52,847 nucleotides of DNA from a virus (taxonomy: Duplodnaviria; Caudoviricetes), in IMG/VR virus record IMGVR_UViG_3300025141_000135, positions 1 through 52,847 of that record. One strand, 5' to 3'. Position 1 is the first letter of the stretch; each line of letters opens with the position of its first letter. This document shows, piece after piece, positions 3,909 through 52,039 of the stretch. Below the pieces are notes generated by a model. It did not search any database, was not told the DNA's origin, and saw nothing but the letters and a program-made list of their open reading frames with translations. A program made the position numbers and the translations under genes.

Positions 3909-3931
3909 CTCCCTAACAAATTGTTACAGAG
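3909..3931. promoter_or_regulatory. 23-bp palindrome copy 1 (CTCCCTAACAAATTGTTACAGAG)
   Basis: Between the nozzle and fibre genes; its minus-strand GGGAG doubles as the fibre RBS. Confidence 0.85.
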
Positions 3932-3932
3932 T

Positions 3933-5492
3933 TTAGTTTTCTAAAGGTACGTACTCGACAATATATCCTACTATGCTCGCAGGGGAACTAGCTGTCCACT
4001 CTGGAGCTAAAGTCTCGCACATCATATTAACAAAAGTGTTTGCCCTTCTGCTCTCTGCCCCTGGCCACTGCTTTCCAGTATTCCAGCTAACTCCAGTGTT
4101 CCAAGAATACTCAGCGCCTACATTAAAAGAATCAGTTACTGTAGCTCCCCTTCCTTGATCTATATTAACCCGCATTGTAACATCACTAGCTTCTTGGCGT
4201 TTATTAAAGATAGTCTGGATATTAAGTATATGCTTTACCTTTCCTGGAAGGCCCAGATCATTAGGAGCCATCTTTATGCGCCAAGTGTAACCAGTCCCAT
4301 CATCCGTTATAAAATCACTGCTATTCGCCTTATACAAATAACCGTTGACTCCTCCAAACCAATCAAGTTCTGTAGAGCTAAGAGTTATCTCTCTGGCATA
4401 ATTTATAGGATTAGATATCAGATCAAACCATATATCCCCTGTCTCCCAATCCCAAACCATAACTTTGTCATGCCCTGAAGTATTACCAGAACTCGACACT
4501 AAGACTCTAACCTGATGATCTTTTTCTCTAACAAACAACCTTGCGTATTGCATCCTTTCTTGGTTAAGACTAAACCATCCATTCTTAGATCCAAGATCAT
4601 CTAAGTTAACAATACGAAAATTAAGATCAGGAGTAATAACAAATAAGCCTTCCCTTGCAACACCAGCAACAAACTCAGGCCGCACTACAAGACTTTTAGA
4701 AATAGGAGTAAAGCCTCGCCTAGGCTGTCCAAGTTGGAAATCAAAGTGTCCTAGCTGATCATATACTATCTCCCCTGGATAAAGCCCGTCTTCTTTAAAT
4801 ATCAGCGCTATCCCCCAGTTATCACAAGCTGCCACAATCTTAGGACCACCGTCATAGATCTCGTATCTGTTGTCAGCCCTCCAAGTTGTTATATCAACCT
4901 CATAAGTTCTTCTATTAATATCACACCAGCGAACTCTAGTAGGATAATAAGTTCCACTCTCAGTAGTTCCCCAAGATAGCATAAGATTCTTATGAGTAAG
5001 GATTCCCTGACACTTACTCCAAGGCATACCTGTAAGATTAGTAGTATTAGAACTAGTAGACCCTGTCCAAGTACGAACTTGGTCTACAGCATTATTCATA
5101 ATCAATTTATCTTTAAGAAACACAAACTCAAAGATATCATCGTTGCCGCCAGTAAAATCGCTGCCAGTTATATCAGTTCTGGATACTGCTCCTCCAGGAT
5201 CTGAGTAAGCCTTACCAGGAGTAGTAACTACTTGCCTAGTAGTACCATCAGCGAAAGTTCCTTGCCACAAACCTGTAGGCATCTCTCCACCAGGAAGTAT
5301 AGTCGTACTATACTTATTATACCCAAACCGACTCTTTGCTACACCCTCTTCTGATATATTAACATTGGTAAGAACTTCGCAGTTCTCAGGACTCAAGTTA
5401 GGGTTAGGATACCGCCACCTTGATTTTTGCCCTTTAATAAGGAATATACCAGACGTTACTGCTTCTGGTGCAACTCTAAATACTTCAGTCAT
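3933..5492 (-). CDS. putative tail nozzle/stabilisation protein (P22 gp10 / T7 tubular B-like)
   Basis: 519 aa, beta-propeller-like and W-rich, with an N-terminal 'LTNVNISEEGVAKSRFG' segment typical of this class; lies between adaptor and fibre. Confidence 0.65.
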   Translation of the reverse strand: MTEVFRVAPEAVTSGIFLIKGQKSRWRYPNPNLSPENCEVLTNVNISEEGVAKSRFGYNKYSTTILPGGEMPTGLWQGTFADGTTRQVVTTPGKAYSDPGGAVSRTDITGSDFTGGNDDIFEFVFLKDKLIMNNAVDQVRTWTGSTSSNTTNLTGMPWSKCQGILTHKNLMLSWGTTESGTYYPTRVRWCDINRRTYEVDITTWRADNRYEIYDGGPKIVAACDNWGIALIFKEDGLYPGEIVYDQLGHFDFQLGQPRRGFTPISKSLVVRPEFVAGVAREGLFVITPDLNFRIVNLDDLGSKNGWFSLNQERMQYARLFVREKDHQVRVLVSSSGNTSGHDKVMVWDWETGDIWFDLISNPINYAREITLSSTELDWFGGVNGYLYKANSSDFITDDGTGYTWRIKMAPNDLGLPGKVKHILNIQTIFNKRQEASDVTMRVNIDQGRGATVTDSFNVGAEYSWNTGVSWNTGKQWPGAESRRANTFVNMMCETLAPEWTASSPASIVGYIVEYVPLEN

Positions 5493-7830: not shown

Positions 7831-8754
7831 CTACACTCCCACTATGTTTAACATCTCGTTAATTCTATGCTCATAAGTATGAGCGCTTCTTACCTTCTCA
7901 TGCCCTGCTTTTGCTATCTTCTCTCGCTCCATAGGATTATCTAAAGCCCACTGAATCTTATCTACCATTTCCTCCTCCCCCTCGTAACCGAGGAAATGTT
8001 CACCTTCTGAAAAGCCCAGATCATCCCAGCCAACTACATCTCTATTAGTAACAAGACAATTACCATAACTAAGAACCTCAAAGAATCTCATATTAAGGTC
8101 ATCTCTAATAGAGATATTAAAGCCAACTCTGGCCCTAGCATATCTCAAAGCAGCTTGATCAAAGAATACATTATAAGCAAACCAACTGTTAGGAAAGTTC
8201 TTAAATATTACATCTAAATAATCTATTCTATTGTTTGATCCTTCTATCTGATTATTACTAGTAGGTAGATGACCAACAAAAGCTACATCATGGAGCTTCT
8301 GAAGTCCATAGGATCCGAAAAATTCTTTAGGTATATCAGCTCTATTATTTTGAAACTCTGCATAGCTAGGATCTACAGGAGGATAACAAGCTAATGGAAG
8401 CCAGTGAACATTCTGTATTCCATCTAACTTCATCTTTGCAACATCAGACTTCTGACATAAGAAAACATGATCAAAGTGCATAGCCCACTTTAACCTAGTT
8501 TCATATCCAAGATGAGTATCCACTAGCCAGCAAGCATTAGGACTAGGAAGATCAGGCATATCAATCTCATCTCTTCCATCATCTATATAAAGCCAAAAGT
8601 CGTGCTTACTAAAATCAGGCTGTACATACCAAGGCCTGTTATAGCGGTCCATACCTGTTTCTTTATACCCCATTCTATATAAAGTATCTGTTACTCTTCT
8701 AGCTGTGCCATTATTTCTAACTTCAGCGTTATAGAGAAGTCCTGGACTTTTCAT
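7831..8754 (-). CDS. glycosyltransferase, CgeB/Glyco_trans_1_2-like (GT-B)
   Basis: DVAFVG...YARARVGFNISIRDDLNMRFFEVLSYG...REKIAKAGHEKVRSAHTYEHRINEML signature. Confidence 0.88.
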   Translation of the reverse strand: MKSPGLLYNAEVRNNGTARRVTDTLYRMGYKETGMDRYNRPWYVQPDFSKHDFWLYIDDGRDEIDMPDLPSPNACWLVDTHLGYETRLKWAMHFDHVFLCQKSDVAKMKLDGIQNVHWLPLACYPPVDPSYAEFQNNRADIPKEFFGSYGLQKLHDVAFVGHLPTSNNQIEGSNNRIDYLDVIFKNFPNSWFAYNVFFDQAALRYARARVGFNISIRDDLNMRFFEVLSYGNCLVTNRDVVGWDDLGFSEGEHFLGYEGEEEMVDKIQWALDNPMEREKIAKAGHEKVRSAHTYEHRINEMLNIVGV

Positions 8755-9998
8755 GCCAAAACCTCCGATACTTTATGACAAACTAACCTAATATTATTAA
8801 GAGTTTCACTTTCTATAGAATCTATATCAAAACCACTAACTTTTACTAGCCGCTCTAAACTATCTTTATTAAAAGCATGAAGATGTGTATAGTCTAATAT
8901 TATAGTATTAGATGTTTCATGGTTAGGAATAGTTAAAAATAACTTTCCTTTGGGAACTAACAATCTATTCCACTCAATCAAAGCAGCAAAAGGGTCTATT
9001 AAATGCTCTAATATATGAGCTGCTACTATATATTCTTGACTCTCATCATCAAGAGGAACACTTGTAGCGTCTGCCTTTATGTCAGTTAATGCCTCTCCTA
9101 ATCTTTCACCTCCCTCACCTAACTCTCCAGCATCTCTTATATCTACTCCTATAGGCCCTTCTAACTTTCTCCCTCCACAACCTATATTAAGACCAGAAGC
9201 CCCATTATAAGGTTTAAGAAGCTCCTTATACCAATCTTCTTCTGTAAGAAGAGGTTTATCCAGATCCCATTCTTTAGGATATTTCCAATGTGCCAAGATA
9301 CATTCTTGCCAAGCTCTCACACCATGCTTAGAAATAAGAGCATTATTAGTAACTTCTTGACTCCAATTAGAATCCCAATCATCTCCATGAACCCTTAATC
9401 CAGTCTGTTGCCCATGATGATGAAGATATGCTCTTCTATCTATTCTTATACTATAACCAGCCTTTATTAAACGAATACTAAGATCTAAATCATCACCTCC
9501 AGGTAACTCAGCATCAAGGCCTCCAATTTCCTTAAATATATCTGTTCTAATAACCATACAAAAGCCTATCAAAAAACTACTATCACAGACTAAAGGAACA
9601 TCAGTACGTTGAATACTTTGATTACCTGCAACAAAGTTACTTCCTGGCCCAACAGCTACCACATTATCTTTTAAGTGCGAAATAAGCTTTGTCCAAAAAT
9701 CCCACTGTGCAGGAATAAAAATAACATCATCATTTAGCAAACAATAGTAAGGAGTCTCAACTGTTTCAAGAGCTAAATTATGTGCCTTCATCCATCCTAA
9801 ATTTTCTTCAGGCTCTATAACTTTTACATACTCTTTAGCTGAGTCAGGCAAAGACTTAGCCACTTCACTTTTTCCTCCATTATCAATTACAATAACTTCA
9901 AAAGGATACTTAGTACTAAGAAAAAGTGACTCTATACATATCTTAAGCATATCAAGATTATTCCAAGTTGGTATAACTATAGTAAGAAGGTTCTTCAT
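8751..9998 (-). CDS. GT2-family glycosyltransferase fused to class I SAM methyltransferase
   Basis: N-terminal TIVIPTWN, VIDNG, LLNDDV, DDLDLSIRL; C-terminal LNIGCG, HILEHL, EWNRLLVPKGKLFLTIPN. Confidence 0.9.
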   Translation of the reverse strand: MKNLLTIVIPTWNNLDMLKICIESLFLSTKYPFEVIVIDNGGKSEVAKSLPDSAKEYVKVIEPEENLGWMKAHNLALETVETPYYCLLNDDVIFIPAQWDFWTKLISHLKDNVVAVGPGSNFVAGNQSIQRTDVPLVCDSSFLIGFCMVIRTDIFKEIGGLDAELPGGDDLDLSIRLIKAGYSIRIDRRAYLHHHGQQTGLRVHGDDWDSNWSQEVTNNALISKHGVRAWQECILAHWKYPKEWDLDKPLLTEEDWYKELLKPYNGASGLNIGCGGRKLEGPIGVDIRDAGELGEGGERLGEALTDIKADATSVPLDDESQEYIVAAHILEHLIDPFAALIEWNRLLVPKGKLFLTIPNHETSNTIILDYTHLHAFNKDSLERLVKVSGFDIDSIESETLNNIRLVCHKVSEVLA

Positions 9999-10876
9999 AC
10001 AGCAACCCCCTTTTCATTAGTCACTACAACTTGTCCATTCCTCATATCTTTTAGCGTATCTCCAAATTCCTTAACATAGTCATCATGATTATGCTGTCTA
10101 TTAGCCCAGTACGCGTCTTCATTACACCACCTAGGTGCATGGTGTAGATGTTCAGTCTTAACTCCAGTATCCATCCATCTCTCTATACTAAACTCTTTGC
10201 ACCTATAACTAAAGAAATAATCTTCTCCACATCCAGTACTGGCAAACCATGGCTTAGGAATTTCTTTAAATATATTCATATTATAAAGACATACAGCTGC
10301 TCCTAATGCAAGCTCCCCTCCTATACTAGAACTTCCAATTAACTGATCTCTAGGATAGTCTAGTAATATCTCATTCTTTTCAACAACCTTAGCATTATTC
10401 GTAATATCCCACTTTTCTGTTAACCGAAAAATAACAGGAAAAATAGGATCTCTAGCACTAAAGGCTAATGCACTTACTACGGGCTTTTGATGCCTCCATA
10501 GGCGAAGAAAAGCATCTTTTTCAAACCTCATATCATCATCCCACCAAAAGAGATAATCAGCATCTATCCCTATAGCTACATCTACTATTCTCTCTCTTGC
10601 CACCCCAACTAACGAAGTACGACTGTAATTTACTATATAGATCTCTAATTTTTCTATATCCTGCCACTCTTCTATTGTAGGATCAGCCAAGCCTTTATCA
10701 TACCCAGTTTCTTCTAAACTAGGAAGAAAATCTAAGTTTTCAATTTTAGGCATCATCTCGTGTACCCATAAACTTCTCTCACGAAGCGCACCAAAGTACA
10801 TCATCATATCAAAATAAAGTGGAAAAGTATTATCATCAGGCCCTGTATACCAAGGCATACCTAACACTAATTTCAT
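9995..10876 (-). CDS. GT-A fold glycosyltransferase
   Basis: ARERIVD...ADYLFWWDDDM (DxD motif), KPWF, GEDYFFSYRC, DTGVKTEH. Confidence 0.8.
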   Translation of the reverse strand: MKLVLGMPWYTGPDDNTFPLYFDMMMYFGALRERSLWVHEMMPKIENLDFLPSLEETGYDKGLADPTIEEWQDIEKLEIYIVNYSRTSLVGVARERIVDVAIGIDADYLFWWDDDMRFEKDAFLRLWRHQKPVVSALAFSARDPIFPVIFRLTEKWDITNNAKVVEKNEILLDYPRDQLIGSSSIGGELALGAAVCLYNMNIFKEIPKPWFASTGCGEDYFFSYRCKEFSIERWMDTGVKTEHLHHAPRWCNEDAYWANRQHNHDDYVKEFGDTLKDMRNGQVVVTNEKGVAV

Positions 10877-11121
10877 TATTTGTCCCTTCTCTCCATTAAG
10901 TCTTTAAGCCGCTCACTTAAAGTTCTATACCTAATAAGCCCTGTTCTCATCTTAAAAAATTCCCACATAGTGCCAGTTTCTACAACCTTAAATTGATGTC
11001 CTATATGATGACGCTTAATATTATTATCTGAACTTAACAGCCACATAATTCGATTACAGGAACATCTAACTAGTTTATCCTTAGTATCTCTTCCATCATG
11101 GGGTTTAAGCCATCCAAACAT
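10876..11121 (-). CDS. hypothetical protein (81 aa)
   Basis: ORF coupled to the next gene (TAATG overlap). Confidence 0.65.
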   Translation of the reverse strand: MFGWLKPHDGRDTKDKLVRCSCNRIMWLLSSDNNIKRHHIGHQFKVVETGTMWEFFKMRTGLIRYRTLSERLKDLMERRDK

Positions 11122-11139
11122 TTCCAGCCCCTTTTAATA

Positions 11140-11186
11140 AATGCAGGAGAGGGTCTTAACCAAAGGAGGCAGTGACCCTCCCCCAC
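11140..11186 (-). terminator. putative hairpin/partial terminator after the capsid genes
   Basis: GGGGAGGGTC...GACCCTCTCC stem followed by an AT-rich run on the minus strand. Confidence 0.45.
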
Positions 11187-11188
11187 AG

Positions 11189-11211
11189 CTCCGTAACAAT
11201 ATGTTACAGAG
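11189..11211. promoter_or_regulatory. 23-bp palindrome copy 2 (CTCCGTAACAATATGTTACAGAG)
   Basis: Intergenic; one core mismatch. Confidence 0.8.
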
Positions 11212-11213
11212 TT

Positions 11214-11708
11214 TTACATAGCCCTAATAAATACATGATCAGCATAAGCCTGACCAGCAGTAGCAATATTAGCACTCAAAAGAGATCCATTACCAGAAGT
11301 TGCTCCACCTCCAATAGTATCCAGAGCAACAATAGGACCATTGAAATCGGCACCAACACTATTCAATCCAAGAGTTGTTAGGTCATAAGTCATTCCATAA
11401 CCAGGACGGATTGTAACAGCTGCAGCAAGAGGAGCAATTAAAGCACTCTCATGGTACCCATACACCTGAGCAATTCCGACATCGTTATTAGCGACATCCT
11501 CATAAGCCAGGCCAATAATATTCCCGCCTCCAAGACCAGCATAACCAAAGGTTGCAGCTTTTGTTGCAGCCTCATTAGTACTTATGCTAGCGGTATTACC
11601 GAGAATTTTAACAACCGGATAATGAGCTGTAATAGTTAAACCATCACTGTTAGTGAAGTTCACCCAAACACGCTCAGTATCCGAACGATTTACAGTCTGC
11701 ATAAACAT
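11214..11708 (-). CDS. putative capsid decoration/cement protein
   Basis: Follows the major capsid gene; IGLAYEDVANNDVGIAQVYG pattern typical of cement-like proteins. Confidence 0.6.
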   Translation of the reverse strand: MFMQTVNRSDTERVWVNFTNSDGLTITAHYPVVKILGNTASISTNEAATKAATFGYAGLGGGNIIGLAYEDVANNDVGIAQVYGYHESALIAPLAAAVTIRPGYGMTYDLTTLGLNSVGADFNGPIVALDTIGGGATSGNGSLLSANIATAGQAYADHVFIRAM

Positions 11709-11723
11709 GAGTATTTTTTCCTC

Positions 11724-13949: not shown

Positions 13950-13972
13950 CTCCATAACAATTTGTTACAGAG
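13950..13972. promoter_or_regulatory. 23-bp palindrome copy 3 (CTCCATAACAATTTGTTACAGAG)
   Basis: Intergenic, upstream of scaffold and major capsid genes. Confidence 0.85.
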
Positions 13973-21307: not shown

Positions 21308-21330
21308 CTCTATAACAATTTGTTATGGAG
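21308..21330. promoter_or_regulatory. 23-bp palindrome copy 4 (CTCTATAACAATTTGTTATGGAG)
   Basis: Overlaps the TerL stop codon and the portal RBS region. Confidence 0.85.
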
Positions 21331-24727: not shown

Positions 24728-24750
24728 CTCTGTAACAATTTGTTACGGAG
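24728..24750. promoter_or_regulatory. 23-bp palindrome copy 5 (CTCTGTAACAATTTGTTACGGAG)
   Basis: Non-coding; about 40 bp upstream of the leftward -35. Confidence 0.85.
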
Positions 24751-26582: not shown

Positions 26583-26622
26583 ATAGGCTCGGGGGTGAGG
26601 ATTCCCTCGGGCCTATTTTTTT
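26583..26622 (+). terminator. intrinsic terminator
   Basis: ATAGGCTCGGGG...CCCTCGGGCCTAT stem followed by a T run. Confidence 0.8.
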
Positions 26623-27094: not shown

Positions 27095-27117
27095 CTCCAT
27101 AACAAATTGTTACGGAG
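27095..27117. promoter_or_regulatory. 23-bp palindrome copy 6 (CTCCATAACAAATTGTTACGGAG)
   Basis: Ends 15 bp upstream of a TTGACA -35. Confidence 0.85.
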
Positions 27118-32148: not shown

Positions 32149-32171
32149 CTTCGTAACAATTTGTTACAGAG
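32149..32171. promoter_or_regulatory. 23-bp palindrome copy 7 (CTTCGTAACAATTTGTTACAGAG)
   Basis: 35 bp upstream of the 32207 start. Confidence 0.8.
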
Positions 32172-35413: not shown

Positions 35414-35623
35414 ATGAGACTAACATTTGAAATTGAAGAAGAGGAACATAAGATACTTTGTAAGTACATACCACATGGTATGAGGAAGTACGCTTACCAA
35501 GCTCTTATAAAAGGCTTTACTAAAGAGTTATCGCAAGACCCCGGTCCTACTATGGAAGCTCTTCTAGGCCAGCGGATAAGGGCTGCTGATCTAGTGCAAA
35601 AGGGCGATGACACAACTCCCTAA
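35414..35623 (+). CDS. small protein, possible RHH DNA binder
   Basis: MRLTFEI strand followed by two helices separated by PHG. Confidence 0.65.
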   Translation: MRLTFEIEEEEHKILCKYIPHGMRKYAYQALIKGFTKELSQDPGPTMEALLGQRIRAADLVQKGDDTTP

Positions 35624-35638
35624 CAATTTGTTACGGAG
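35616..35638. promoter_or_regulatory. 23-bp palindrome copy 8 (CTCCCTAACAATTTGTTACGGAG)
   Basis: Overlaps the stop of 35414..35623, about 200 bp upstream of the ParB-MTase gene. Confidence 0.85.
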
Positions 35639-35649: not shown

Positions 35650-35850
35650 ATGGCTGATCTTAAAAGCGAACAGTTTGGGATACTTCAAATGGACAGTACC
35701 AAACTGCTTGAACATATAATGGCTGTTCGGACGAGACGCAGGGATCGTTCTAAACCAGCAACTCCCAAAAGAGTAGCTAAGAAGAAGAACCCTCTAGGTA
35801 AAGTCTCTGATGAACAGATACGTAAACTACTGGAGATGACTAGTGAGTGA
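35650..35850 (+). CDS. small basic hypothetical protein
   Basis: AAGGAG RBS. Confidence 0.7.
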   Translation: MADLKSEQFGILQMDSTKLLEHIMAVRTRRRDRSKPATPKRVAKKKNPLGKVSDEQIRKLLEMTSE

Positions 35851-37180
35851 CGTAGAGCTACTAAACATAGACCTACCTGATATAGACTTCGGGGATAGAG
35901 CTAGAAAGAATTATAAAGACTTGGATCTTTTGGCTAAAGACTTCAAAGAGAAAGGCGTAATTTCTCCTATTGCTGTTAAGCGCACATCAGAAGGCGAGAA
36001 GCCTTTTCTTCTTCTAGCCGGTGGTCGCAGGTATTCTGCGGCTGTGTTTGGAGACTTTTCTTCTATTCCTGCCAGAGTCTACCCAGAAGACTTAAGTGAG
36101 CTAGACTATCGAGAGATAGAACTAATGGAAAACGTATCTCGGGCGGACTTAGATTGGAAGGAAGAAGTCTGGCTAACTGAGGAAATCCATCGCCTGAAGG
36201 TTGAGCAACATGGAGAAGCGGCAGGTCCAAGCGAAGGACACTCAGCCGCCGACACTGCTGACCTGATGGGAAAGAGTCCTATGAGTGTATCTCGAGACCG
36301 CCAGCTGGCCGCAGGCCTGGAGAAACATGGTGAAGTACTTGAGGATGCAAAGAACAGAAGCGAAGCTCTGCGGACTCTTAAACGACTAGAAAGAAAAGAA
36401 CAAGAAGCAGTTGTATCTAAGAACATCCAAGCGGAAGTGCTAAAGGACCAAGGAGAATCTCTTAAGGGCGCTTTGGTAAACAGCTACATCCTTGGCGATT
36501 TCTTTGAGGGAATAAAAGGAGTTCCGGACTCTGCTGTCCATGCAGTTGAGATTGATCCTCCTTATGCTATAGACTTAAAGAACATCAAGTACGGTAAGAG
36601 GGACGATCTTGAAACTTACAATGAAGTAGATGAGAAGGACTACCCGGAGTTTTTAGAAAACCTGTTTCAAGAATGCTATAGAGTTATGTTCCCTTCCAGC
36701 TGGCTAATATGTTGGCACGCCATTCAGTACTATCCCCTTATCAAATCCCTTCTTGAAGAAGCTGGATTCTCTGTTGAGAAGATCCCTGCTGTGTGGACTA
36801 AGAATGGCCCTGGGCAAACTCATAACCCAGAGTCTCGCTTAGGTTCTACCTACGAACCTTTTATTTATGCCAAGAAAGGAAACCCTGTTATCTACCAAGC
36901 TGGCCGCTCTAATGTCTTTAATTTCAAGACTATCCACAGCGAACATAAAGTACACCCAACAGAGCGTCCCATTGAGATGATAACTGAAGTGCTTAAAACA
37001 TTCTGTTCTCCTGGCCAGCGAGTCTTAGTTCCCTTTTTAGGAAGCGGGAACACTTTGCTCGCCGCCAGTAACTACGGAATGACGGGCTTTGGTTTTGATC
37101 TAAGTGAGGAATACCGAAACTCTTTTATGGCTAAAGTACAAAACGGAGAACCTAATAACTACTATAGCTACTCTTCTTAG
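35843..37180 (+). CDS. ParB N-terminal (CTPase-like) domain + HTH fused to beta-class amino (N6A/N4C) DNA methyltransferase
   Basis: SPIAVKR...LLAGGRRYSAA...IPARV...ELMENVSRADL; HTH SAADTADLMGKSPMSVSR; DPPY, HPTERP and PFLGSG in catalytic-before-SAM order. Confidence 0.9.
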   Translation: MSDVELLNIDLPDIDFGDRARKNYKDLDLLAKDFKEKGVISPIAVKRTSEGEKPFLLLAGGRRYSAAVFGDFSSIPARVYPEDLSELDYREIELMENVSRADLDWKEEVWLTEEIHRLKVEQHGEAAGPSEGHSAADTADLMGKSPMSVSRDRQLAAGLEKHGEVLEDAKNRSEALRTLKRLERKEQEAVVSKNIQAEVLKDQGESLKGALVNSYILGDFFEGIKGVPDSAVHAVEIDPPYAIDLKNIKYGKRDDLETYNEVDEKDYPEFLENLFQECYRVMFPSSWLICWHAIQYYPLIKSLLEEAGFSVEKIPAVWTKNGPGQTHNPESRLGSTYEPFIYAKKGNPVIYQAGRSNVFNFKTIHSEHKVHPTERPIEMITEVLKTFCSPGQRVLVPFLGSGNTLLAASNYGMTGFGFDLSEEYRNSFMAKVQNGEPNNYYSYSS

Positions 37181-41457: not shown

Positions 41458-44400
41458 TTAATCTCTTGGTTTTTGTACTGAAGGAAGGGTAGGAGCGTAC
41501 AACTCAGCTGGTGCCTTATACTTAGGCTTACGAGGAAAGAACTTCGCTAACTTTTCGTCTGTCCTGGCTCTTTCTTCAAGCATCTTCATAAACTCTCTTC
41601 CGAACTTTCGCTTCTTGTAAGTCTGTCCTCTGAATATTCTTCGTTCATCTAGCATCCTTAATTTAAAGCCAGCAAGCTCACTGCCTACCTGATAAAGCGT
41701 TGCGGTCTCTCCTTTAGCCTGTGCTTCCAAAAGCCTAGTGAGTTTTCCAAAAGGAGGAAACGCTTTTCCGATAGCCCACTCTGTTTGTTTAGATGGCTGA
41801 GACTCTTCAGGCAACCAAGGAAATAAAGAGATAGGATCTTCTCCTTCATACCTAGTGGGCATCTGTCCTTCCCAGCGACCTATAGCAGTACTTCCCATAA
41901 AAAAGTCCTGGTTTAAGAATAGCTGAAGAGGCCCGCTAATAATAGGATTAGTACTAGACAAAATATCCTTGACATTAAACCTATTAAGCTCTAAAAGAGG
42001 TATATCAATCTGACCGGCCACAGGCATATTATCCTGATTTATATAAGGTACCTGCCAGGCCATTACCTCATCCCAATAGTCTGGGGTTTCGGCTTGTTCA
42101 AACTCAGGGTAAAGGCTCTCAACAGCGGCCTTAGTCTTAGGAATCTGAGCCATACGCCCTGGGTTCTCTAATATAGCCATCATCACTCGAGGGGCGGCAA
42201 ACCTCTGCCAAGCATAAAAAGGAAGGATTCTCTTAAACGTAGTCTTTTCAAAGTCTGTCAGCATCCTATAATCAAAGTGCCACAGTCGAGGCATCTCAGC
42301 TGCCGCCTCTGCAGGCATACCTTTGGCTAAGCTATCTAAGAAAAGCGTCCATCTTCCCTGGTTCTCTACAATCTGAGCAGCGGCTCTATTAACCTTGATA
42401 GGCCAGAACTGTGCACCTCCAATTTTGCTAAGCTTATCCTTTAACGGAAGGTCTTCTTTTGACCCAAAGGCCATCACTTCAGCAACTCGAGGGTCTATTT
42501 TCTGGCTTATTTCTGTAGGCATACCAACTACATCGCTGTTCCAAAGTATATCAGCCGCGCCAGCTTCAGTGTTATAAATTGAGCTGGCTACTTGTGGAAC
42601 TCCAAGATCCTCTCCCATCCTAGCTATCTCAGAATAACTTAAAACCCTACCATCTGCGTCTTTTATTCCTATATCTGGAACGTCATCTAGGCTATCCCAG
42701 CCATACCTACGCGCTATGCTATTAGTTCTTTTCAACATCCAATCTGGAAGCCTTCCTGCACCCTCAGATACTGCCATTAGTTTTACAGCTTGGAGGTTCC
42801 TAAGCATAAACTCGGATAAAGAAAAGCGCCCTTTCTTATTTCTTCCAACCCCAGCCATCCAGTTACTGTTCATTATACTGATGAGATTTCTCGCGTGATA
42901 ACCAGTACCGAATGTAGCCCACCCTTTCCATACGTTAGTAAGGTCATCAAAGGCTTTTCCAAAAGCTGTTATCTGTCTAGAGTCCCCTATTAATTCTTCG
43001 CTTCTAGTTAGAAAGTTGTAAATCTCATTAGGAAGAATATAAGCCCCTATGATTTCTTCTTTGTACTTAGCCCCTTGATCAAAGTCATCGCTTATTTTTA
43101 TCTTTTTCTTTATCTCATAAACCTTCATTCCTTGCCCATCGCCTGAAGGTCCTTCTTTTCCCAGAGGGGTCTCTATAGTTTCCTTAATATCTTTCCATGT
43201 ACTTCCTTCTATAGGAGGCCTTTTAGCGTTAAAGAAAGCAGGGTCAAAATCTATCCTAGTTGCCAGTTCTGGATTAGTAAGAATCGCTTCTCCAAACTGC
43301 CTAGACACCACGTACCTTACGCTATCTACTGCTCGAGTCCTAAGAATATTCCCTATGTCCAGCTCAGTTCCATACTCTACGTCTCCTCGAATCCCAGCTA
43401 AGACCCTGTCAAGTTGGTTAGGATAACTCTTCGCTTGTCCAAACCCAGGTATTGCCTCAGTCCCTGGAAGGATTCCTCCTCCACTTCTTGTCTGCTCAGG
43501 CCTACGACTTTCTGCTACTCTTTCAAATGCTCTAGCCAGCCGAGGATCTTTGGGTGTGGTCCCGTGAAGGTATAAATCACGAAACATACTTGGATCTATT
43601 ACTCCCCCGAGAGGCGCGTTAACCTCAGATGCAAATAGTCTCTTGGTAAAACTACGAATCACCTTTGCATACTCTTTAAGCTTAGGACCGTTTTCAGCTA
43701 TTATCAGCCCTCCTTCTATAAAAGCATCTATCTGGCTCTCCATAAGCTTGGGTTGATCCATTAGAGTTCCCATCAGCCTTCTTTCTCTGGGACTCATCCA
43801 AGTAATCATAGAGTCTATCTCATCTAGCATAGCCACTATTTCATTCTCAGCCTTAGCCCCAAAGCGTCTCTTTATATTAAGTAATGCTTTTCTATGTTCA
43901 GCGGGAAGCTCTGGGTGCATCTTGAACGCCTTGTCCAGTGCCTCTGTAATAGGCTTTCCTGCACGAGTGCCTTTTGCTGCTTTATATATCTTTTGTGGAA
44001 TTGTAGCTAAAGCAGTTCCAGGAATATAATTAAGAGGATCTATAAATATAGTTCCCATAAGGGCTAAAGTCCAGTTAGCCGCTTCAGAGGCTTCCGCTAA
44101 ATTTCCCTCATACTCTTCCAAGATCTCTGGGCTAATACCCAGTCTCCTGGCTTCCGCTTTTTCTTTGCTTGTTACTTTTCTGGGATCAATGTCTAAAAGA
44201 CCATACCTTTGTGCCAGTTCAGATATATCTGTTTGCCTACTCCTTAAGTTCAATCCCAGAGTATAACCTGCTCCGATCTCACTAGCAAAAGCTTTCCAAC
44301 CTTCCCATACAGCACTACCACTTCTAACTGGCCCTTCTATTCCAGTGCTCCTCAGCTTTGAGTCTTCTATCAAAGCATCTTCTATCGCAGCTCCCACTCC

Positions 44401-44865
44401 GTAACTAGGAGCTTGAAGAAGGTTGCTAAGTATGCCGACTACATTACTCATCCTTCTATCTAGAGTACCTAGAAAGCCTACTCTACCTTCAGCTTTAATA
44501 TACTCATCATACTGAGCTAACAAACCCATCTCAGGATAGACCCTATCCATCTCTTCAACTTGTGCTCGTCTCTTATCTACTTCATTACGCACGGCCTTAA
44601 AGGATATTATCTGGTCCTCTGTAACCTCTAGTGAAGTTCCCCAAGTTCCTTCTGGAAGATCTCTTTTGCTAGGCAGATTGAATATAGGAGTCCCAGACAC
44701 AGGAAAGATATCTTCATCATGAGGGTCTACATAGCTTGTATCTATTTTTGCATCTTCGTGGCTTTTCTCTATAAGGGCATTTAGAGAAATATTCTTTCTT
44801 TCTTCTAACCCTTCTTCTATTATAGAGTTTAGACTCCGTCTATTTATTAAATTACGCTCAGTCAT
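41458..44865 (-). CDS. large putative internal virion/DNA-ejection protein (1135 aa)
   Basis: Helical, with GYHARN and HFDY...LTDFEK...ILPFYAW motifs seen in podophage ejection proteins; last of three large genes. Confidence 0.65.
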   Translation of the reverse strand: MTERNLINRRSLNSIIEEGLEERKNISLNALIEKSHEDAKIDTSYVDPHDEDIFPVSGTPIFNLPSKRDLPEGTWGTSLEVTEDQIISFKAVRNEVDKRRAQVEEMDRVYPEMGLLAQYDEYIKAEGRVGFLGTLDRRMSNVVGILSNLLQAPSYGVGAAIEDALIEDSKLRSTGIEGPVRSGSAVWEGWKAFASEIGAGYTLGLNLRSRQTDISELAQRYGLLDIDPRKVTSKEKAEARRLGISPEILEEYEGNLAEASEAANWTLALMGTIFIDPLNYIPGTALATIPQKIYKAAKGTRAGKPITEALDKAFKMHPELPAEHRKALLNIKRRFGAKAENEIVAMLDEIDSMITWMSPRERRLMGTLMDQPKLMESQIDAFIEGGLIIAENGPKLKEYAKVIRSFTKRLFASEVNAPLGGVIDPSMFRDLYLHGTTPKDPRLARAFERVAESRRPEQTRSGGGILPGTEAIPGFGQAKSYPNQLDRVLAGIRGDVEYGTELDIGNILRTRAVDSVRYVVSRQFGEAILTNPELATRIDFDPAFFNAKRPPIEGSTWKDIKETIETPLGKEGPSGDGQGMKVYEIKKKIKISDDFDQGAKYKEEIIGAYILPNEIYNFLTRSEELIGDSRQITAFGKAFDDLTNVWKGWATFGTGYHARNLISIMNSNWMAGVGRNKKGRFSLSEFMLRNLQAVKLMAVSEGAGRLPDWMLKRTNSIARRYGWDSLDDVPDIGIKDADGRVLSYSEIARMGEDLGVPQVASSIYNTEAGAADILWNSDVVGMPTEISQKIDPRVAEVMAFGSKEDLPLKDKLSKIGGAQFWPIKVNRAAAQIVENQGRWTLFLDSLAKGMPAEAAAEMPRLWHFDYRMLTDFEKTTFKRILPFYAWQRFAAPRVMMAILENPGRMAQIPKTKAAVESLYPEFEQAETPDYWDEVMAWQVPYINQDNMPVAGQIDIPLLELNRFNVKDILSSTNPIISGPLQLFLNQDFFMGSTAIGRWEGQMPTRYEGEDPISLFPWLPEESQPSKQTEWAIGKAFPPFGKLTRLLEAQAKGETATLYQVGSELAGFKLRMLDERRIFRGQTYKKRKFGREFMKMLEERARTDEKLAKFFPRKPKYKAPAELYAPTLPSVQKPRD

Positions 44866-46514: not shown

Positions 46515-46537
46515 CTCCGTAACAATTTGTTATAGAG
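46515..46537. promoter_or_regulatory. 23-bp palindrome copy 9 (CTCCGTAACAATTTGTTATAGAG)
   Basis: Intergenic; the minus-strand GGAG is the RBS of 46508. Confidence 0.85.
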
Positions 46538-46555: not shown

Positions 46556-49500
46556 CTATCCTCCAGTAGCCGCTGCGCCTGCGCTTGCTCCAGCTGCTGT
46601 AGCTGCTGGCATCAAATCTGTGTTACCGGTTGCATATGCTAGATACGCGCCTCCTGCTGCTCCAACGCCTATACCAAAAGCCCTACCTATACTAGAAAGA
46701 GCTGACACTCCTCCTGCTTCTCTCTCAGAAGAGAAATTAGACCCAGAAAGAAAACTCATAATAGCAGATTGTGTAGTATCATCTAGATCAGCAAACCAAG
46801 TATCGCTTATATAGCTGATATTAAAAGGACGTGTACCTCCATCATCTAGACGTTCACCTTTTAAAGAGTCAAAATAAGATGTCATATTTCTAAGAAGGGT
46901 TTGGTCATTACCTATCCCTCCTGTTATTGAAGCAAATAAATCATTTACTTGCTGTTTTTGTTCATCTGAAGCATTAGCCACAAAGTCATTAGCGGCAGTT
47001 ACAGAGTTAAATTCATGGCCTGGGACATATAATAAAGCTCCTGCGTTATCTCCGTACACATCTTTAACAGAGTCTTGCAAAGAACCAAGAAAATAATCTC
47101 CCCATTCACCTGACCACTGTATATTATCCCAAACTGGAGGCCTATCTGGATCAGTAAGAGCGTATACAGTTGCTGCAGCTCCAGCAGCGGGGCCTCCTAA
47201 TATGGTGGCTGTGGTTATCTTAAATTTGTTATCCCAGAGCTTACGGAATATTCCTCTTTGTTCTGCATCTGCTGCGTTAAAAGTTGATTCATCTGCGGGA
47301 AGGGCGTCTGGACCTACAGGGGCATATGTCTTTATTTCCTGCCCTCCTTTTATTAGGCTAGCCCAAACATCTAACATATTCTTTTCTGCTTGGTCAGCCT
47401 GTCTATTCGCCCTTGCAAAGGTTTCTCCATCAATACCAAAAGACGTTGCTATAGCTCTTTCCCTATCCCCATAAAGAAGATCATACTGATCTTTTGCCTG
47501 AAGAAATGCCCCTTGCTCTTGTCTCTCTTGGTAACCATGAGATATTATAACATTATTTATAGCATCTTCTCTTTGTTGAATCCTTTGTTCTTCTGTAAGA
47601 TCAGGATTAAAAAACACATCTGTTAGTCTTTGGTCCAGATCCCACATAGCGTTACGAAACTTATTACTATCAAGACCGTACTGCTCAGCTACCTCTAAAT
47701 TTATCCTGTTCCACTCTTTATCCGCTCTCTCTTTAGCGTCATTGAACTTATCTCTATCAAGACCATTCTCTGCCGCTATAGCATCGTACTTAGATATCCT
47801 CTCCATGTTCTGCTGCATGATAGTAGCCGCAAACTCTTTAGCCTTCTGTGTAGGCATATTATCTTCTACATTTATCCTACCATTAGCTATAAGATTATTC
47901 AGCTCTCCATCAGTAATATCCCTGCCAAGCATCGCACTAAAGCTCATCCTTATGGAGTTCTTCATATCTTCGCTTGGAGGCATATAAGGAAACATAGCCC
48001 ACTCAGACTTAGGAATACCCAGATCTTCCAGAGAAAGAAGCCCTCCTGGGACTCCAACATCTCCAGTAACATCTGCCCAAGCCTGACTAATATCTGCTGA
48101 AATAGCCCGAGTATTATTTACAATATCACTATTAATCTTCTTAATGGCCGCTTCAATCTCTGTCTCGCTTAAGCCAAATTCTTTAAGCCTAATAGCAATA
48201 TCGTTATTGAACTGCCGAACAGTTTCCCTAAGCTCTGTGTTAAATTGCCTCTGTTGTTCGTCTAACTGCTCTTCTGCCATCTTACCAGTGGTAATAGTAC
48301 TAAACGCATTTACTAGATTAGTAATAGTACTATCCCTAGCGGCCTGGAGCCTGTCTTGAACCTCAGAATCCAACGCTGCTAAGTCTTGAATCCTTTGATT
48401 CTCCAGAAGCTCAAACTGCCTCTGCGCTCTTCCAGTCTTAGGCCCTCCTGGATCTATAGCAAACTGTCGGCCGAGACGTAACCTGGCATCTCCGTAACGA
48501 TCTTCTATAGCGGTAGTCTGAGAAGCCTTGTACTCTTCCGAGTTAAAGCCCATATCCTGAACTGTGTTTTCTATCTCTGTAGCTATAGTACTTTGAATAC
48601 TCTCGAGGTTAGCTGGGTCTCCAGCGTTACCCATTCCACCTTCCCCTTCTACACTAGTATTCGCATCAGTATTTGCTTGCTGCTCTCTAGCCCACTCGGC
48701 ATAAACCATAGCTTCATGAGGACTCAAAAGAGGATTTCCTTCTGCGTCCACCTGGTCTGTTAACCAGAAGACCCTCTCTAAAATATCTAAGCCTGCTGGA
48801 GGCTCCGGAATCTTTAGAAGGATATCTTCTATACTAATATTCGCTATAGCTGCTTCATACTCAGGAGTTCCAGGAGTGTAAAGAGAATCTACTATAACTT
48901 CATCTCCTGCTTCTGCTCTGTCTCCTTCTCTATCCGCCAGGACTTCTGCGTAGTTAGTCTCCCATTCTTCTAATGTGCCATCCTGGAAAGCCTTAATATA
49001 ACCCGCGAGAGCATCTTCTCCATCAGCATTGAGAACTTCTCCTGCCCTTATTACCTGATCATCATTAAGGCCTAGTAGAGGTTGCTCTATAAGATATTTT
49101 GCTCTTTCTCCATCTAAATAAGGAGATATAGAAGCGTAATCTTCTAAGGATCTCTCAGGGATTACATCTTTCCCTTCTCCCATAATAGAAGCATAATTAT
49201 CTTGTTTACTTTTAATTATATCCTTAAGGAGCGCATTGTAAGCGGCTTCCCCACCTGACCTATACGCCCCTTCTAATAAACTTATCTCTTGGGCTGTGAG
49301 TTCCCTATGTGGAGAACCAGGATCTCCAAGACCTCCTGCTTGGTGGGTCAAAAAGTCCTGGCTTGTCCTTATCTTATTCTGTATTGTCTCTGCTTCGGTG
49401 GGTTCAGTAGGAGTAGTTTCATCTTTCCAAGCCTCGGCAGGATCATCTCTATTCTCTTTTGCCCACTGGTACCATCTAAGAGCATCATCTCCACTAATAG

Positions 49501-52009
49501 TTCCGGCATTAACACTATCCGCCAAAAGCTGAAAAGCATCAAAATTACTCAGATCACTAGGAATAGCAGGGAGTCTAGCTAGAAACGCTTCTAGCGACTC
49601 CTCTTCTTCTAATGTTACATCTAGATCAGTACCAAACTCAGTTAAAGACTCTTCTTCCTCTTCTAAGGTTACATCTAGCTCAGTGCCAACCTCAGTCAAA
49701 GGTTCCTCCACCGGCTCTTCTCCAAGAAAATCAGTTCCTTTTATCTGGTTTAAAACTGATTCAAATCTAACAGGGCCTCCATCATTGAAAGCCTTTCTAA
49801 GTCTGGCTAGCTGCTGAGCGTTTAGCTCCACTCCTGCGTTAGCCACTAAAGAGTCAAAACCTGTTCCTGCTGTAGCATCTATCTCCTCTGTATCTTCTGT
49901 TTCTCCGTCTCCAAGATCCGGCTGTTCAGCATCGTCTGCCACTCTCTTAGTCTCATTAGCCCAACCGAGCCATCTTTGTGCATCTTCTTCTGACACTCCT
50001 TGTTCTATAAGCCAAGTCATTCCAGGAACATTACTCATACTGCTGGGGACTGTTGGAAGTCTAGCTAAAAGAGTTTCTATAGGTTCTACAGGTTCTTCCG
50101 TAGGCGTTCTTTTTGTTTCTCCAGCATTCATTGGCTCGTCTTCATATTTGTACCAAAACCAGAATCTCCACCTCTTTACGTCCTCTTCAGTAACACCCTC
50201 TTGGTCTGATAACCATGCCATAGCTCCATCAAGGTCCAGAGAACCAGGAACAGCAGGCATCCTGCTTAAGAAAGCCTCTCGAGACTCTGCAGCTTTCCAA
50301 GTCCAACTTTCAGGATCAAAAGTCGGCATATCCCAAGAGTAGATAGCCCCAGATCCAGGGATCATCTCTTCTGGCATAGGAGGAGCCAGTTCCCATCTAC
50401 CTGAGGAAGGCCTTTTGTAATAGCCTTCTCTTCCAACATTAGGATCTTCTATACCAGAAGTATCACCGGTTTCAGTGTCAAAACCTGGCGGCAGGCCTGG
50501 CTGTTCTGGCGTAACATCTACATCTACTGTACCCTCATCAACAGGAGGCAGACTACTATCTCCTTCTCCCCCAACACCTGGCGCGGCATCCCACCTCCAA
50601 CTAGCCTGATTCCATGTCGCTCCCTCTCCTTTATCATTAGGGGGAATCTCAGTCCATATTCTAGTGTAAGGATGCTTTGCGTATCCCTCTCTAAAAGCGT
50701 TAGGGTCTGCTTTTATATCCTCTATAGTTGTTTTTCCCTTCTCCCATAATTTTTGTACAAGACTACCAGGGTCTACTGTATGATCCTCTAGTTCTCCTTG
50801 TGTATCCCCTATAATCTCGGTCTCTTCATTTTCTGTTTCTTCTAGCTGCGCTGCTGCATTATTAGCCCTGGTGTTAGATATAAGCTTAAGCAAATCAGTT
50901 TTCTGTTGGGGCGTAAGATTAGGATCTGCGTATATATCATCTCCTATTTCTCCAGAAAGCTCACCTTCACCAATCCTTTGTTGGTACTCTTGAAAAGCAT
51001 AAGGATTATTAGCAGGAGGGAGGGCCGCTTGCGCATTAAGCTTTTTTATCTCTGCTAGCACCCTGTTAAATTCTTCTTCTCCTCCACGCCCAAAAGCTTT
51101 AAACAACTGATCTGTTTGTTCACTGCTTAACTCTATATCAACTCCTTCTATTAATGTAGGAAGAGTTGGCTCAGTAGGGGTTGGAGGATCGTCAGCTACA
51201 GGCTCTACAGGAGGAGGACCCCAAGACTCAGTTTGATAATTAAAAGTCCAGTCTAGACCTCCAGGGTTAGGAGGTATAGGTACCCATGTTAAGCTACTGG
51301 GACTCTGGTAATACCCTTCTCGATTTTCGTTCGGGTCTTTTGTTGGCCCTGTAGCTCCTAAAGTTTCCCTAGTAGACTGACTCACGTTCACGGTAGGAGT
51401 TAAAGCACTTTGGGCTGCAGTAACAAGTCTGTTATGCTCAGGGCTGCTTTTATAATTTGATACTAATCTTTGTACAGCAGGAGTTGTGGCTGCTAGCGCT
51501 TTCCCATCTACTGTGATAACCTTACCTAAAGGATCAGCCTTTATAGCTTCTATATACTTATTAGCAACGTCCTGGTCTGTTTCTACAGGGACTGAAGGAA
51601 CATCAGCTAATGGATCAGAAGAAGAAAATATAAGAGCTGTTTCATCTTCTAATTTTGGAGGTTCTTGGTTAATATTATCAACAGTAACTACTGGAGCGGT
51701 CTGTCCACCAAAGCCGCCAGCAGCGCCGGTGTAAGACTGTCCTATATCCTCTTCTGATTCTAGAGACTCACTATCAGGTGCCAGCTTAGCCCTAGAAGAA
51801 TCTGCGTTAGCCGCTATCCTAGTACTCATTATAAGAGTAAGTAATTCGGATTTTTCTGCAGCGGTAAGAGTAGCGTCTGCGTTTATAGTATCCCCTATCC
51901 CTGTTGTTTCCCCTCCTGTAATTCTTTGTTTGTAAGACTGGAACTTACCATTGTTTGGGTCGACAATACTTGAAGTAGCAGTACTTACTGTAACACCTGA
52001 AAATGCCAT
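46556..52009 (-). CDS. very large acidic repeat-mosaic protein (1817 aa), putative ejection protein
   Basis: Several internal repeat families, central coiled coil (EQQRQFN), C-terminal Gly/Ala zipper. Confidence 0.7.
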   Translation of the reverse strand: MAFSGVTVSTATSSIVDPNNGKFQSYKQRITGGETTGIGDTINADATLTAAEKSELLTLIMSTRIAANADSSRAKLAPDSESLESEEDIGQSYTGAAGGFGGQTAPVVTVDNINQEPPKLEDETALIFSSSDPLADVPSVPVETDQDVANKYIEAIKADPLGKVITVDGKALAATTPAVQRLVSNYKSSPEHNRLVTAAQSALTPTVNVSQSTRETLGATGPTKDPNENREGYYQSPSSLTWVPIPPNPGGLDWTFNYQTESWGPPPVEPVADDPPTPTEPTLPTLIEGVDIELSSEQTDQLFKAFGRGGEEEFNRVLAEIKKLNAQAALPPANNPYAFQEYQQRIGEGELSGEIGDDIYADPNLTPQQKTDLLKLISNTRANNAAAQLEETENEETEIIGDTQGELEDHTVDPGSLVQKLWEKGKTTIEDIKADPNAFREGYAKHPYTRIWTEIPPNDKGEGATWNQASWRWDAAPGVGGEGDSSLPPVDEGTVDVDVTPEQPGLPPGFDTETGDTSGIEDPNVGREGYYKRPSSGRWELAPPMPEEMIPGSGAIYSWDMPTFDPESWTWKAAESREAFLSRMPAVPGSLDLDGAMAWLSDQEGVTEEDVKRWRFWFWYKYEDEPMNAGETKRTPTEEPVEPIETLLARLPTVPSSMSNVPGMTWLIEQGVSEEDAQRWLGWANETKRVADDAEQPDLGDGETEDTEEIDATAGTGFDSLVANAGVELNAQQLARLRKAFNDGGPVRFESVLNQIKGTDFLGEEPVEEPLTEVGTELDVTLEEEEESLTEFGTDLDVTLEEEESLEAFLARLPAIPSDLSNFDAFQLLADSVNAGTISGDDALRWYQWAKENRDDPAEAWKDETTPTEPTEAETIQNKIRTSQDFLTHQAGGLGDPGSPHRELTAQEISLLEGAYRSGGEAAYNALLKDIIKSKQDNYASIMGEGKDVIPERSLEDYASISPYLDGERAKYLIEQPLLGLNDDQVIRAGEVLNADGEDALAGYIKAFQDGTLEEWETNYAEVLADREGDRAEAGDEVIVDSLYTPGTPEYEAAIANISIEDILLKIPEPPAGLDILERVFWLTDQVDAEGNPLLSPHEAMVYAEWAREQQANTDANTSVEGEGGMGNAGDPANLESIQSTIATEIENTVQDMGFNSEEYKASQTTAIEDRYGDARLRLGRQFAIDPGGPKTGRAQRQFELLENQRIQDLAALDSEVQDRLQAARDSTITNLVNAFSTITTGKMAEEQLDEQQRQFNTELRETVRQFNNDIAIRLKEFGLSETEIEAAIKKINSDIVNNTRAISADISQAWADVTGDVGVPGGLLSLEDLGIPKSEWAMFPYMPPSEDMKNSIRMSFSAMLGRDITDGELNNLIANGRINVEDNMPTQKAKEFAATIMQQNMERISKYDAIAAENGLDRDKFNDAKERADKEWNRINLEVAEQYGLDSNKFRNAMWDLDQRLTDVFFNPDLTEEQRIQQREDAINNVIISHGYQERQEQGAFLQAKDQYDLLYGDRERAIATSFGIDGETFARANRQADQAEKNMLDVWASLIKGGQEIKTYAPVGPDALPADESTFNAADAEQRGIFRKLWDNKFKITTATILGGPAAGAAATVYALTDPDRPPVWDNIQWSGEWGDYFLGSLQDSVKDVYGDNAGALLYVPGHEFNSVTAANDFVANASDEQKQQVNDLFASITGGIGNDQTLLRNMTSYFDSLKGERLDDGGTRPFNISYISDTWFADLDDTTQSAIMSFLSGSNFSSEREAGGVSALSSIGRAFGIGVGAAGGAYLAYATGNTDLMPAATAAGASAGAAATGG

Positions 52010-52016
52010 TAGTCAC

Positions 52017-52039
52017 CTCTATAACAAATTGTTATGAAG
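52017..52039. promoter_or_regulatory. 23-bp palindrome copy 10 (CTCTATAACAAATTGTTATGAAG)
   Basis: Overlaps the stop of 52032..52232 and the RBS of 52009. Confidence 0.8.

Follow-up and report, generated by a model that had tools for sequence, protein, structure and literature searches.

The KorB-OB system of plasmid RK2 and the Noc-NBS system of Bacillus are built on ParB-family cytidine triphosphatases (CTPases) that work by a clamp mechanism from about ten or more dispersed palindromic sites, and parS, NBS and KorB sites are 13-16 bp long. Here we analyse a 52.8-kb marine phage genome, the IMG/VR record IMGVR_UViG_3300025141_000135 (Caudoviricetes; 52,847 nucleotides, the whole stretch being called the window below), in which ten copies of a 23-bp palindrome accompany a gene encoding a ParB N-domain, a ParB-type helix-turn-helix (HTH) and a DNA methyltransferase in a single protein. 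The best reading, to which we assign a probability of about 0.45, is that the palindromes are parS-like sites for this ParB-HTH-methylase. By analogy, KorB-OB and Noc-NBS appear to be the nearest working models: the window has a protein with a ParB N-domain and an HTH, whose residues 1 to ~200 match the fold of Noc, KorB and ParB, and its palindromes are spread over the replicon instead of being clustered as a centromere. It differs from both systems in the CcrM-like methylase standing in place of the C-terminal dimerisation domain, in the length of the site (23 bp, not 13-16 bp), in the position of the sites within operons, at gene junctions, and in having no integrase or ParA-like gene among the open reading frames (ORFs) scanned, the scan not being exhaustive.

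Fusions of the ParB-CTPase fold to N6_N4 methyltransferases were reported in a 2025 survey to be enriched in phages and prophages, with a role called unknown, "perhaps in anti-defense", and with a nucleotide reliably predicted neither by sequence nor by AlphaFold3 (PMC12704722). The window protein has the same two Pfam domains (PF02195 and PF01555); in contrast, the survey's passages on the fusions name no DNA sites, and "palindrom" occurs 0 times in its main text (PMC12704722). A common type of fusion, exemplified by Streptococcus phage Javan488, has neither the HTH nor the GGRR motif and comes from a phage without a palindrome family, whereas the window family has an inserted ParB-type DNA-binding domain. 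No published link between ParB-methylase fusions and dispersed sites was found in a search that excluded supplements; those of the survey may list HTH-bearing methylase fusions.

Dispersed palindromes are also described in lytic phages: mycobacteriophage Corndog (Cluster O) carries 34 17-bp copies, reported as being of unknown function, for which the authors predict a dimeric binding protein and a role outside transcription initiation (PMC4351075). Like the window sites, these dispersed repeats are dyad-symmetric, have a variable AT-rich centre and occur in integrase-free phages, but their sequence is unrelated (TGTTCGGNNNCCGAACA) and about a third of the copies are intragenic (PMC4351075). 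Corndog gp90 (L133 2425-3933, minus strand) aligns to Spo0J over residues 30-162 (ParB N-domain and HTH, E 8.7e-9), the ~340 aa after the HTH having no family match and, unlike the window protein, no methylase domain by Pfam; the paper's account of the repeats draws no link to gp90 (PMC4351075). As an independent parallel, Corndog hints that ParB-HTH proteins and dispersed palindromes may go together in lytic phages. The stoperators of Cluster A phages likewise consist of one short site repeated many times, in small intergenic gaps all over the genome, with a co-evolving phage DNA-binding protein (PMC9283540, PMC6550527, PMC4351075). A stoperator is asymmetric, follows the direction of transcription and binds the monomeric immunity repressor of a temperate phage, whereas the window sites are symmetric and have no consistent orientation, and the window ORFs scanned included no integrase or repressor family; the window sites do not have the features of stoperators.

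Ten palindromes at the gene junctions of the window

The preliminary description of this genome had reported ten copies of the 23-bp consensus CTCYR-TAACAA-W-TTGTTA-YRGAG, with the core exact in nine, and two scans confirmed all of them (Table 1). The 13-bp core TAACAAWTTGTTA, with at most one mismatch, gave 10 matches against 0.06 expected, a number reached in 0 of 100 shuffles, and only the copy at 11194 carried the mismatch; the 23-mer CTCYRTAACAAWTTGTTAYRGAG, with up to 3 mismatches permitted, returned the same 10 sites with 0-1 mismatch each, against 0.00 expected. The placement described earlier was also borne out: neighbouring sites are 2367 to 10899 bp apart on the circle (2.4-10.9 kb in the description), nine of the ten lie in tiny gaps between same-strand ORFs, on both arms, and the remaining one (24728) is in the divergent control region, while copy 8, said to lie about 200 bp upstream of the fusion gene, ends 205 bp before its start. 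At 21308, 35616 and 52017 the upstream gene ends on the TAA of TAACAA; at 3909, 21308, 35616, 46515 and 52017 the next start codon lies 6-11 nt beyond the 3' GAG. No T-run follows the palindromes, and neither the centre base nor the arm variants have a consistent orientation relative to transcription.

Table 1 Palindromes and candidate reader genes of the window, with the palindrome families of related phages.
Genome	Feature	Position	Strand	Core start	Sequence	Description
Window	Copy 1	3909..3931		3914	CTCCCTAACAAATTGTTACAGAG	between the stop of a 519-aa gene and the start of the tail-fibre gene
Window	Copy 2	11189..11211		11194		one core mismatch; 2 nt past the stop of a 164-aa gene
Window	Copy 3	13950..13972		13955		3 nt past the stop of a 139-aa gene
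Window	Copy 4	21308..21330		21313		its TAA is the large terminase stop; a 703-aa gene starts 6 nt further on
Window	Copy 5	24728..24750		24733		divergent control region between both arms
Window	Copy 6	27095..27117		27100		15 bp upstream of promoter-like TTGACA-17-TATATT (27133-27161)
Window	Copy 7	32149..32171		32154		35 nt before a 128-aa ORF preceding the PD-(D/E)XK nuclease gene
Window	Copy 8	35616..35638		35621		contains the TAA stop of the ribbon-helix-helix-like gene; upstream of the ParB-methylase
Window	Copy 9	46515..46537		46520		6 nt before the start of a 545-aa gene
Window	Copy 10	52017..52039		52022		its TAA is the stop of a 66-aa gene; the 1817-aa gene starts 7 nt further on
Window	Family A gene	35414..35623	+			69 aa; ribbon-helix-helix-like fold; rival candidate binder or co-factor
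Window	66-aa ORF	35650..35850	+			between the 69-aa gene and the ParB-methylase gene; no family matched
Window	ParB-HTH-methylase gene	35843..37180	+			445 aa; ParB N-domain, ParB-type HTH, long helix, beta-class (DPPY) DNA methyltransferase; leading candidate binder
Desulfofustis phage LS06-2018-MD01	Palindrome family				CTATGTCCCAANTTGGGACATAG	9 copies; methylase 41.6% identical
G002	Palindrome family				CTATGTAAAAWWWTTTTACATAG	10 copies
G004	Palindrome family				GTTTTGTCAGAWTCTGACAAAAC	10 copies, two in the terminal repeat
G005	Palindrome family				GTTGTTTAAATNATTTAAACAAC	15 copies
G008	Palindrome family				CTCCGTAnCAAnnTGTTACGGAG	8 copies
G009	Palindrome family				CTGTATGCAW5TGCATACAG	10 copies
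G006	Palindrome family				CTCATGTGAAAWTTTCACRTAAG	5 copies
G003	Palindrome family					4-5 degenerate copies

The spacing of the sites was compared with that of sites drawn at random among the gene junctions of each genome, using the coefficient of variation and the minimum gap. The sites were spread more evenly than random draws in the window (P 0.004 and 0.001, respectively), in the Desulfofustis phage (P 0.019 and 0.018) and in the relative G005 (P 0.001 and 0.004), and such even spacing is compatible with a distance-dependent function or with one site per gene block.

Two other uses of the sites were set aside. A promoter reading was rejected on the start codons 6-11 nt downstream and the ribosome-binding GAG inside the site; since the large ORFs (1817, 1135, 1216, 703 and 545 aa) match no Pfam or PHROG family, no phage RNA polymerase making promoters of the sites was found. 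The reading of the palindrome as the methylase's own target was dropped, CAAWTTG occurring 12 times (nine inside sites) against 8.7 expected; in the relative G004, GANTC gave no clear signal as a methylase target (189 against 186.9 expected).

A family of phages with diversified DNA sites

The palindromes are family-wide and diversified. A megablast of 10 kb of the window against 50,697 phage records gave no match; a profile search retrieved 453 related viral contigs, and a palindrome family of at least 3 members was present in 29 of the 41 loci of at least 10 kb that were fetched, with more than ten distinct half-sites among them. The co-occurrence of motif and ParB-methyltransferase gene, proposed as a check in the preliminary description, was positive: the fusion gene was present in all 38 loci found via the methylase or the neighbouring polymerase, most of them with their own diverged palindrome family. 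Five copies were counted in a 27-kb fragment from a near relative. In the closer relatives (methylase 80-89% identical) the sites are kept at orthologous junctions with single changes confined to one arm, and the coding DNA flanking them has diverged at many positions; distant relatives have different 23-bp palindromes in an equivalent architecture (9-15 copies in 5 larger genomes), and the centre of every palindrome family is AT-rich and variable. The structural modules of the window and G003 are unlike those of the Desulfofustis phage, G002, G004 and G005, yet sites are present in all six genomes, and the only four protein families common to 6 of 6 (PD-(D/E)XK nuclease, AAA_24, ParB-methylase and PolA) all belong to the replication module; consequently, the sites travel with the replication module.

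Two further features were observed in the palindromes of relatives. In the Desulfofustis phage (L015 245-290, 2230-2270 and 42973-43010) TATAAT or TATAGT stands 5 nt beyond the palindrome, in the conserved flank cgaatTATAATtc, and at these three copies the palindrome would overlap the -35 region of a promoter. In G005 (L062-L063) the palindrome centre AATNATT is rare outside the sites, 15 of its 18 occurrences (14.7 expected) falling inside them.

The arms of the palindromes were examined for covariation in 71 sites from seven genomes, with right arms shuffled among sites as the null. The variable arm positions gave 169 matched cells against 193.8 +/- 6.9 in the null; real arms thus matched less than shuffled ones, and pairing between them is not under selection. 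At the imperfect arm positions of the window, read in transcript orientation, a hand count that omitted the ambiguous site at 24728 found 7 G-U pairs, 5 C-A/A-C and 3 other mismatches, and the similarity of the first two counts indicates no strand bias, in agreement with the earlier remark that the flanks do not consistently preserve G-U pairing. Predicted sense RNA hairpins were weak, with means of -8.3 kcal/mol in the window (range -5.6 to -11.9), -5.0 in G002 and -3.4 in G005, some G005 sites having 0.0 kcal/mol, and were no more stable than the antisense ones; the phage's own terminators reach -21 to -23 kcal/mol. The stable G+C-rich stem, T-run and arm covariation of an intrinsic terminator or RNA processing signal were not found in the palindromes. 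The independent variation of the arms and the weakness of the RNA hairpins favour a double-stranded DNA site, as the preliminary description had held, and the data fit a symmetric dimer that reads both half-sites of the duplex.

The half-sites themselves show a pattern explained by no model considered: in G002 (L053-L055), G008 (L071-L072) and G006 (L066-L067) both half-sites of a site tend to be different variants, and 8 of the 9 G002 sites with same-strand flanking genes are oriented alike relative to transcription, the asymmetric sites of G008 being oriented 3 and 3.

Candidate readers of the sites

The domain make-up of the fusion agrees with what had been described earlier, that is, ParB motifs and an HTH fused to a DPPY methyltransferase. 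Pfam identified ParB_N (PF02195, E 1.9e-8, above the cut-off) and N6_N4_Mtase (PF01555, E 1.1e-21). Among 19 natural sequences aligned, GGRR(F/Y), IELxENxxR, the HTH GHSxxDTAxLxG-xSxxSVSRDxxLAxGLE and then DPPY are conserved; G60, R62, R63, E93, E96, N97 and R100 are invariant, as are D238, P239 and P240 of the methylase motif, and Y241 is conserved in at least 90% of the sequences. The conserved residues of the N-domain are presumably those of ParB box II (GxxRxxA-like) and box III (ENxxRxxL-like). The structural model (predicted local distance difference test, pLDDT, 84.6) comprises the N-domain, the HTH at 135-166 (helices 135-142 and 146-166), a long helix at 172-202 and the methylase domain, residues 215-445 being a beta-class methylase. 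In Foldseek, the methylase domain matched CcrM (6pbd, E 4.2e-15) and residues 1 to ~200 matched Noc (7nfu, E 2e-8, 204 columns), KorB (8qa9, E 4.5e-8) and ParB (6t1f, E 1.3e-7), these three targets being C-terminally truncated forms with the N-domain and the DNA-binding domain (alignments of 176-231 columns); a profile search against the PDB aligned residues 5-195 to Noc. A Vibrio phage relative has a degenerate HTH region in its fusion and no palindromes.

We propose a mechanism in which the identity of the binder, the nucleoside triphosphate (NTP) dependence, the sliding and the purpose of the methylation are putative. The sites would dock, sequence-specifically on double-stranded DNA, a symmetric dimer encoded in the conserved early cassette, the ParB-type HTH of the fusion recognising two half-sites (CTCYRTAAC) around an uncontacted AT-rich centre. 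The fusion would nucleate every 2.4-10.9 kb, at gene junctions of both arms, the even spread of the sites giving it access to the whole genome; nucleation might be followed by NTP-gated clamp closure and spreading, after which the CcrM-like methylase domain would act along phage DNA bearing the sites. The 69-aa ribbon-helix-helix-like protein encoded just upstream, called family A here, may be a co-factor or the true binder.

Several observations weigh against the fusion as the reader. Its 445 aa have no match to the canonical ParB C-terminal dimerisation domain that closes the clamp, closure by the methylase domain in its place being hypothetical, and the site is longer than the 13-16 bp of parS, NBS and KorB. 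Twelve of the 41 loci of at least 10 kb have no palindrome family reaching the threshold, although four of these belong to the L037 group, in which degenerate copies are visible with an outer-arm filter; Microcystis phage Mel-JY34 has an apparent HTH-like stretch in its fusion (a forced, weak alignment) and no palindrome family. Spacing was no more even than chance in G002 (P 0.37 and 0.15) and G004 (P 0.09 and 0.14). In 40 of 41 loci the fusion gene has the family A gene immediately before it, and 9 of 12 genomes contain the latter, the exceptions being the two palindrome-free phages and G007. Across 26 lineages the distance of every protein segment tested correlated with palindrome distance, and in partial Mantel tests controlled for methylase-domain distance the HTH (r 0.31) and the recognition helix (0.26) were outscored by the ParB N-domain (0.34) and the rest of the protein (0.39), with 0.17-0.26 for family A. 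The half-site CTtTGTTCAAA occurs with clearly different recognition helices. As the HTH is outscored by the rest of the protein and one half-site pairs with several helices, covariation does not separate the fusion from family A.

One comparison of half-site and helix is a point in favour of the fusion. The window and G008 have the common half-site CTCYGTAAC and near-identical recognition helices (SVSRDRQLA and SVSRDRYLA), and in the L037 group, which is equally distant, SISRDLTLA goes with CTGTGT half-sites. The family A strand hardly changes among these three, and it reads RLTFEI, RITFDV or RLTFDI in lineages whose half-sites differ.

The alternative that the sites are operators for the 69-aa protein, binding as a dimer of dimers, is possible but doubtful. 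It would make this protein a genome-wide regulator or transcription roadblock, stoperator-like but symmetric and placed at operon-internal junctions, with the ParB-methylase a mere neighbour or a recruited partner. The protein begins MRLTFEIEEEEH, and the glycine in the turn between its helices is invariant in the alignment. Its model (pLDDT 83) fits a ribbon-helix-helix, with residues 1-8 extended and helices at 9-18 and 21-41, and the top rows of a VIA-align search of 48,161 chains are mostly ribbon-helix-helix proteins over residues 1-45 (RelB, DinJ, ParR of pB171, TacA, YiiF, PutA-DNA, NikR, CopA and ParD), but with Z of only 2.5-3.7; Pfam, PDB profiles and Foldseek gave nothing significant (best ParD, E 0.17; no Foldseek match at E <=0.001), and the Pfam and PHROGs scan of 20 small early window ORFs found no HTH or ribbon-helix-helix family. 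Its 201 homologues at E <=0.001 carry a Pfam family in 0 of the 120 listed, and its ESM Atlas matches are unnamed viral clusters only. The position of the gene speaks for an operator role: it is co-conserved with the cassette and was not detected in the two palindrome-free relatives, its stop lies inside copy 8, and 4 of 25 lineages, against ~0.5 expected, have a site in the 60 nt before its start (in 8 of 25 a site immediately precedes family A or immediately follows the methylase, an enrichment far from universal). Set against this, the putative DNA-reading strand is near-constant across lineages with different half-sites, and the ORFs scanned yielded neither an integrase nor a lysogeny module that would require the whole genome to be silenced. 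G007 has no family A ORF at the syntenic place, yet it has 5 sites and an HTH-bearing fusion, a single comparison that favours the fusion over family A as the binder. The predicted complex of family A with ParB residues 1-230 scored 0.00, which counts neither for nor against binding.

A more specific version of the preferred reading is parS-like enzyme delivery, in which lineage-specific loading sites would recruit an NTP-gated ParB-methyltransferase clamp that slides for kilobases and marks only site-bearing DNA, site and reader co-diversifying in at least 453 contigs; we consider it rather unlikely in this complete form. The preliminary description had proposed such loading onto phage DNA, for self-marking or anti-restriction, with operators for a small DNA-binding protein as the alternative: the DNA-level sites, the ParB-HTH-DPPY make-up and the co-occurrence stood, but the fusion was not singled out, given the equally linked family A gene and the neutral covariation.

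It is unlikely that the sites have another reader or use altogether (an unrecognised phage protein, a host factor, recombination, replication or packaging), the link to the cassette reflecting only shared ancestry of the replication module. Most early window genes have no family match, all the protein distances tested correlate with palindrome distance as shared descent would give, and the arms of one site differ more than by chance, which a simple homodimer model does not predict. However, the half-sites diverge among phages of similar marine samples, which fits a co-evolving phage-encoded reader over a conserved host factor; of the four families common to all six genomes, only one is a DNA-binding protein in which a domain for reading sequence can be recognised; and few, if any, of the analogous repeats are said in the Cluster O paper to take part in inter-genome rearrangements (PMC4351075).

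Least probable, and very improbable in our view, is an RNA element, that is, an intercistronic hairpin with or without a phage RNA-binding protein or nuclease, serving translational coupling, masking of ribosome-binding sites or the processing and stabilising of long polycistronic transcripts: it would suit the upstream stop codon inside or at most 3 nt from the site in 6 of 10 copies, the 3' arm (GGAG or AGAG) 6-11 nt before a start codon in 5 of 10, the Shine-Dalgarno-like run directly after the site in G005 and G002 and the orientation of the G002 sites, but not the arms, which are if anything anti-correlated, the missing strand bias and T-runs, the weak hairpins equally stable in antisense, the ribosome-binding site lying outside the palindrome in most lineages, the G008 sites pointing both ways, or the sites away from start codons (11189, 13950, 24728 and 27095, and a convergent junction in G005).

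Genome context and significance

Genes on the minus strand occupy 1-24.4 kb and 41.0-52.8 kb of the window and encode a Mx8-like major head protein, the large terminase, the tail fibre and several large proteins without family match; early and replication genes occupy 25.7-41.0 kb on the plus strand, the replication module comprising a PD-(D/E)XK nuclease, an AAA_24 ATPase, the ParB_N and N6_N4_Mtase fusion (35843-37180), a fusion of uracil-DNA glycosylase, exonuclease and PolA, and a DUF3987 protein. The DNA polymerase (37193-39586, plus strand) is a three-part fusion of a uracil-DNA-glycosylase-superfamily domain (residues 8-155), a 3'-5' exonuclease and a family A polymerase, and its gene adjoins the ParB-methylase gene in all relatives. 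The late arm begins, as far as large genes go, with a second methyltransferase (23694-24371, minus strand; Methyltransf_24, E 2.6e-9), ~360 bp from copy 5.

Between 24900 and 29000 the plus strand has a cluster of near-consensus sigma-70-like promoters (24908, 25113, 27133 and 28918) and strong intrinsic terminators (26583-26616, 26650-26687 and 28109-28142); no comparable promoter was seen in the 28-kb late arm of the minus strand. An unrelated perfect palindrome with 10-bp arms, TCTCGACAGTGTTACTGTCGAGA, occurs once (28187-28209), beside a terminator. The giant ORFs at 46556-52009, 41458-44865 and 14395-18045 (all on the minus strand) encode 1817, 1135 and 1216 aa, respectively, and the Desulfofustis, Vibrio and Microcystis phages have a syntenic giant ORF after the replication module. 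Within the structural arm, a low-GC island (8000-12000; 35.5-39.4% against ~45%) contains a 415-aa ORF (8751-9998), glycosyltransferase- and methyltransferase-like.

Compared with the first reading of this genome, the analysis adds that the system is family-wide, its sites co-diversifying, and that another candidate binder is linked to the sites just as closely. With several to fifteen copies in each genome and natural variants of both site and reader in many lineages, the palindromes of this phage family provide a defined candidate site on DNA. ParB-methylase fusions are common in phages, with a role that the 2025 survey calls unknown, and a candidate site is a testable clue to it (PMC12704722). 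If the ribbon-helix-helix-like protein binds the sites instead, they would define a new family of genome-wide phage regulators, useful but less surprising. If enzyme delivery is correct, it would provide self-restricted epigenetic marking, for example by shielding phage DNA from a nuclease of host or phage origin while the host stays unmethylated. Should the fusion bind the sites, the ParB clamp principle would be extended from segregation and repression to targeted enzyme delivery, and it might explain the orphan dispersed palindromes of other lytic phages, such as those of Cluster O.

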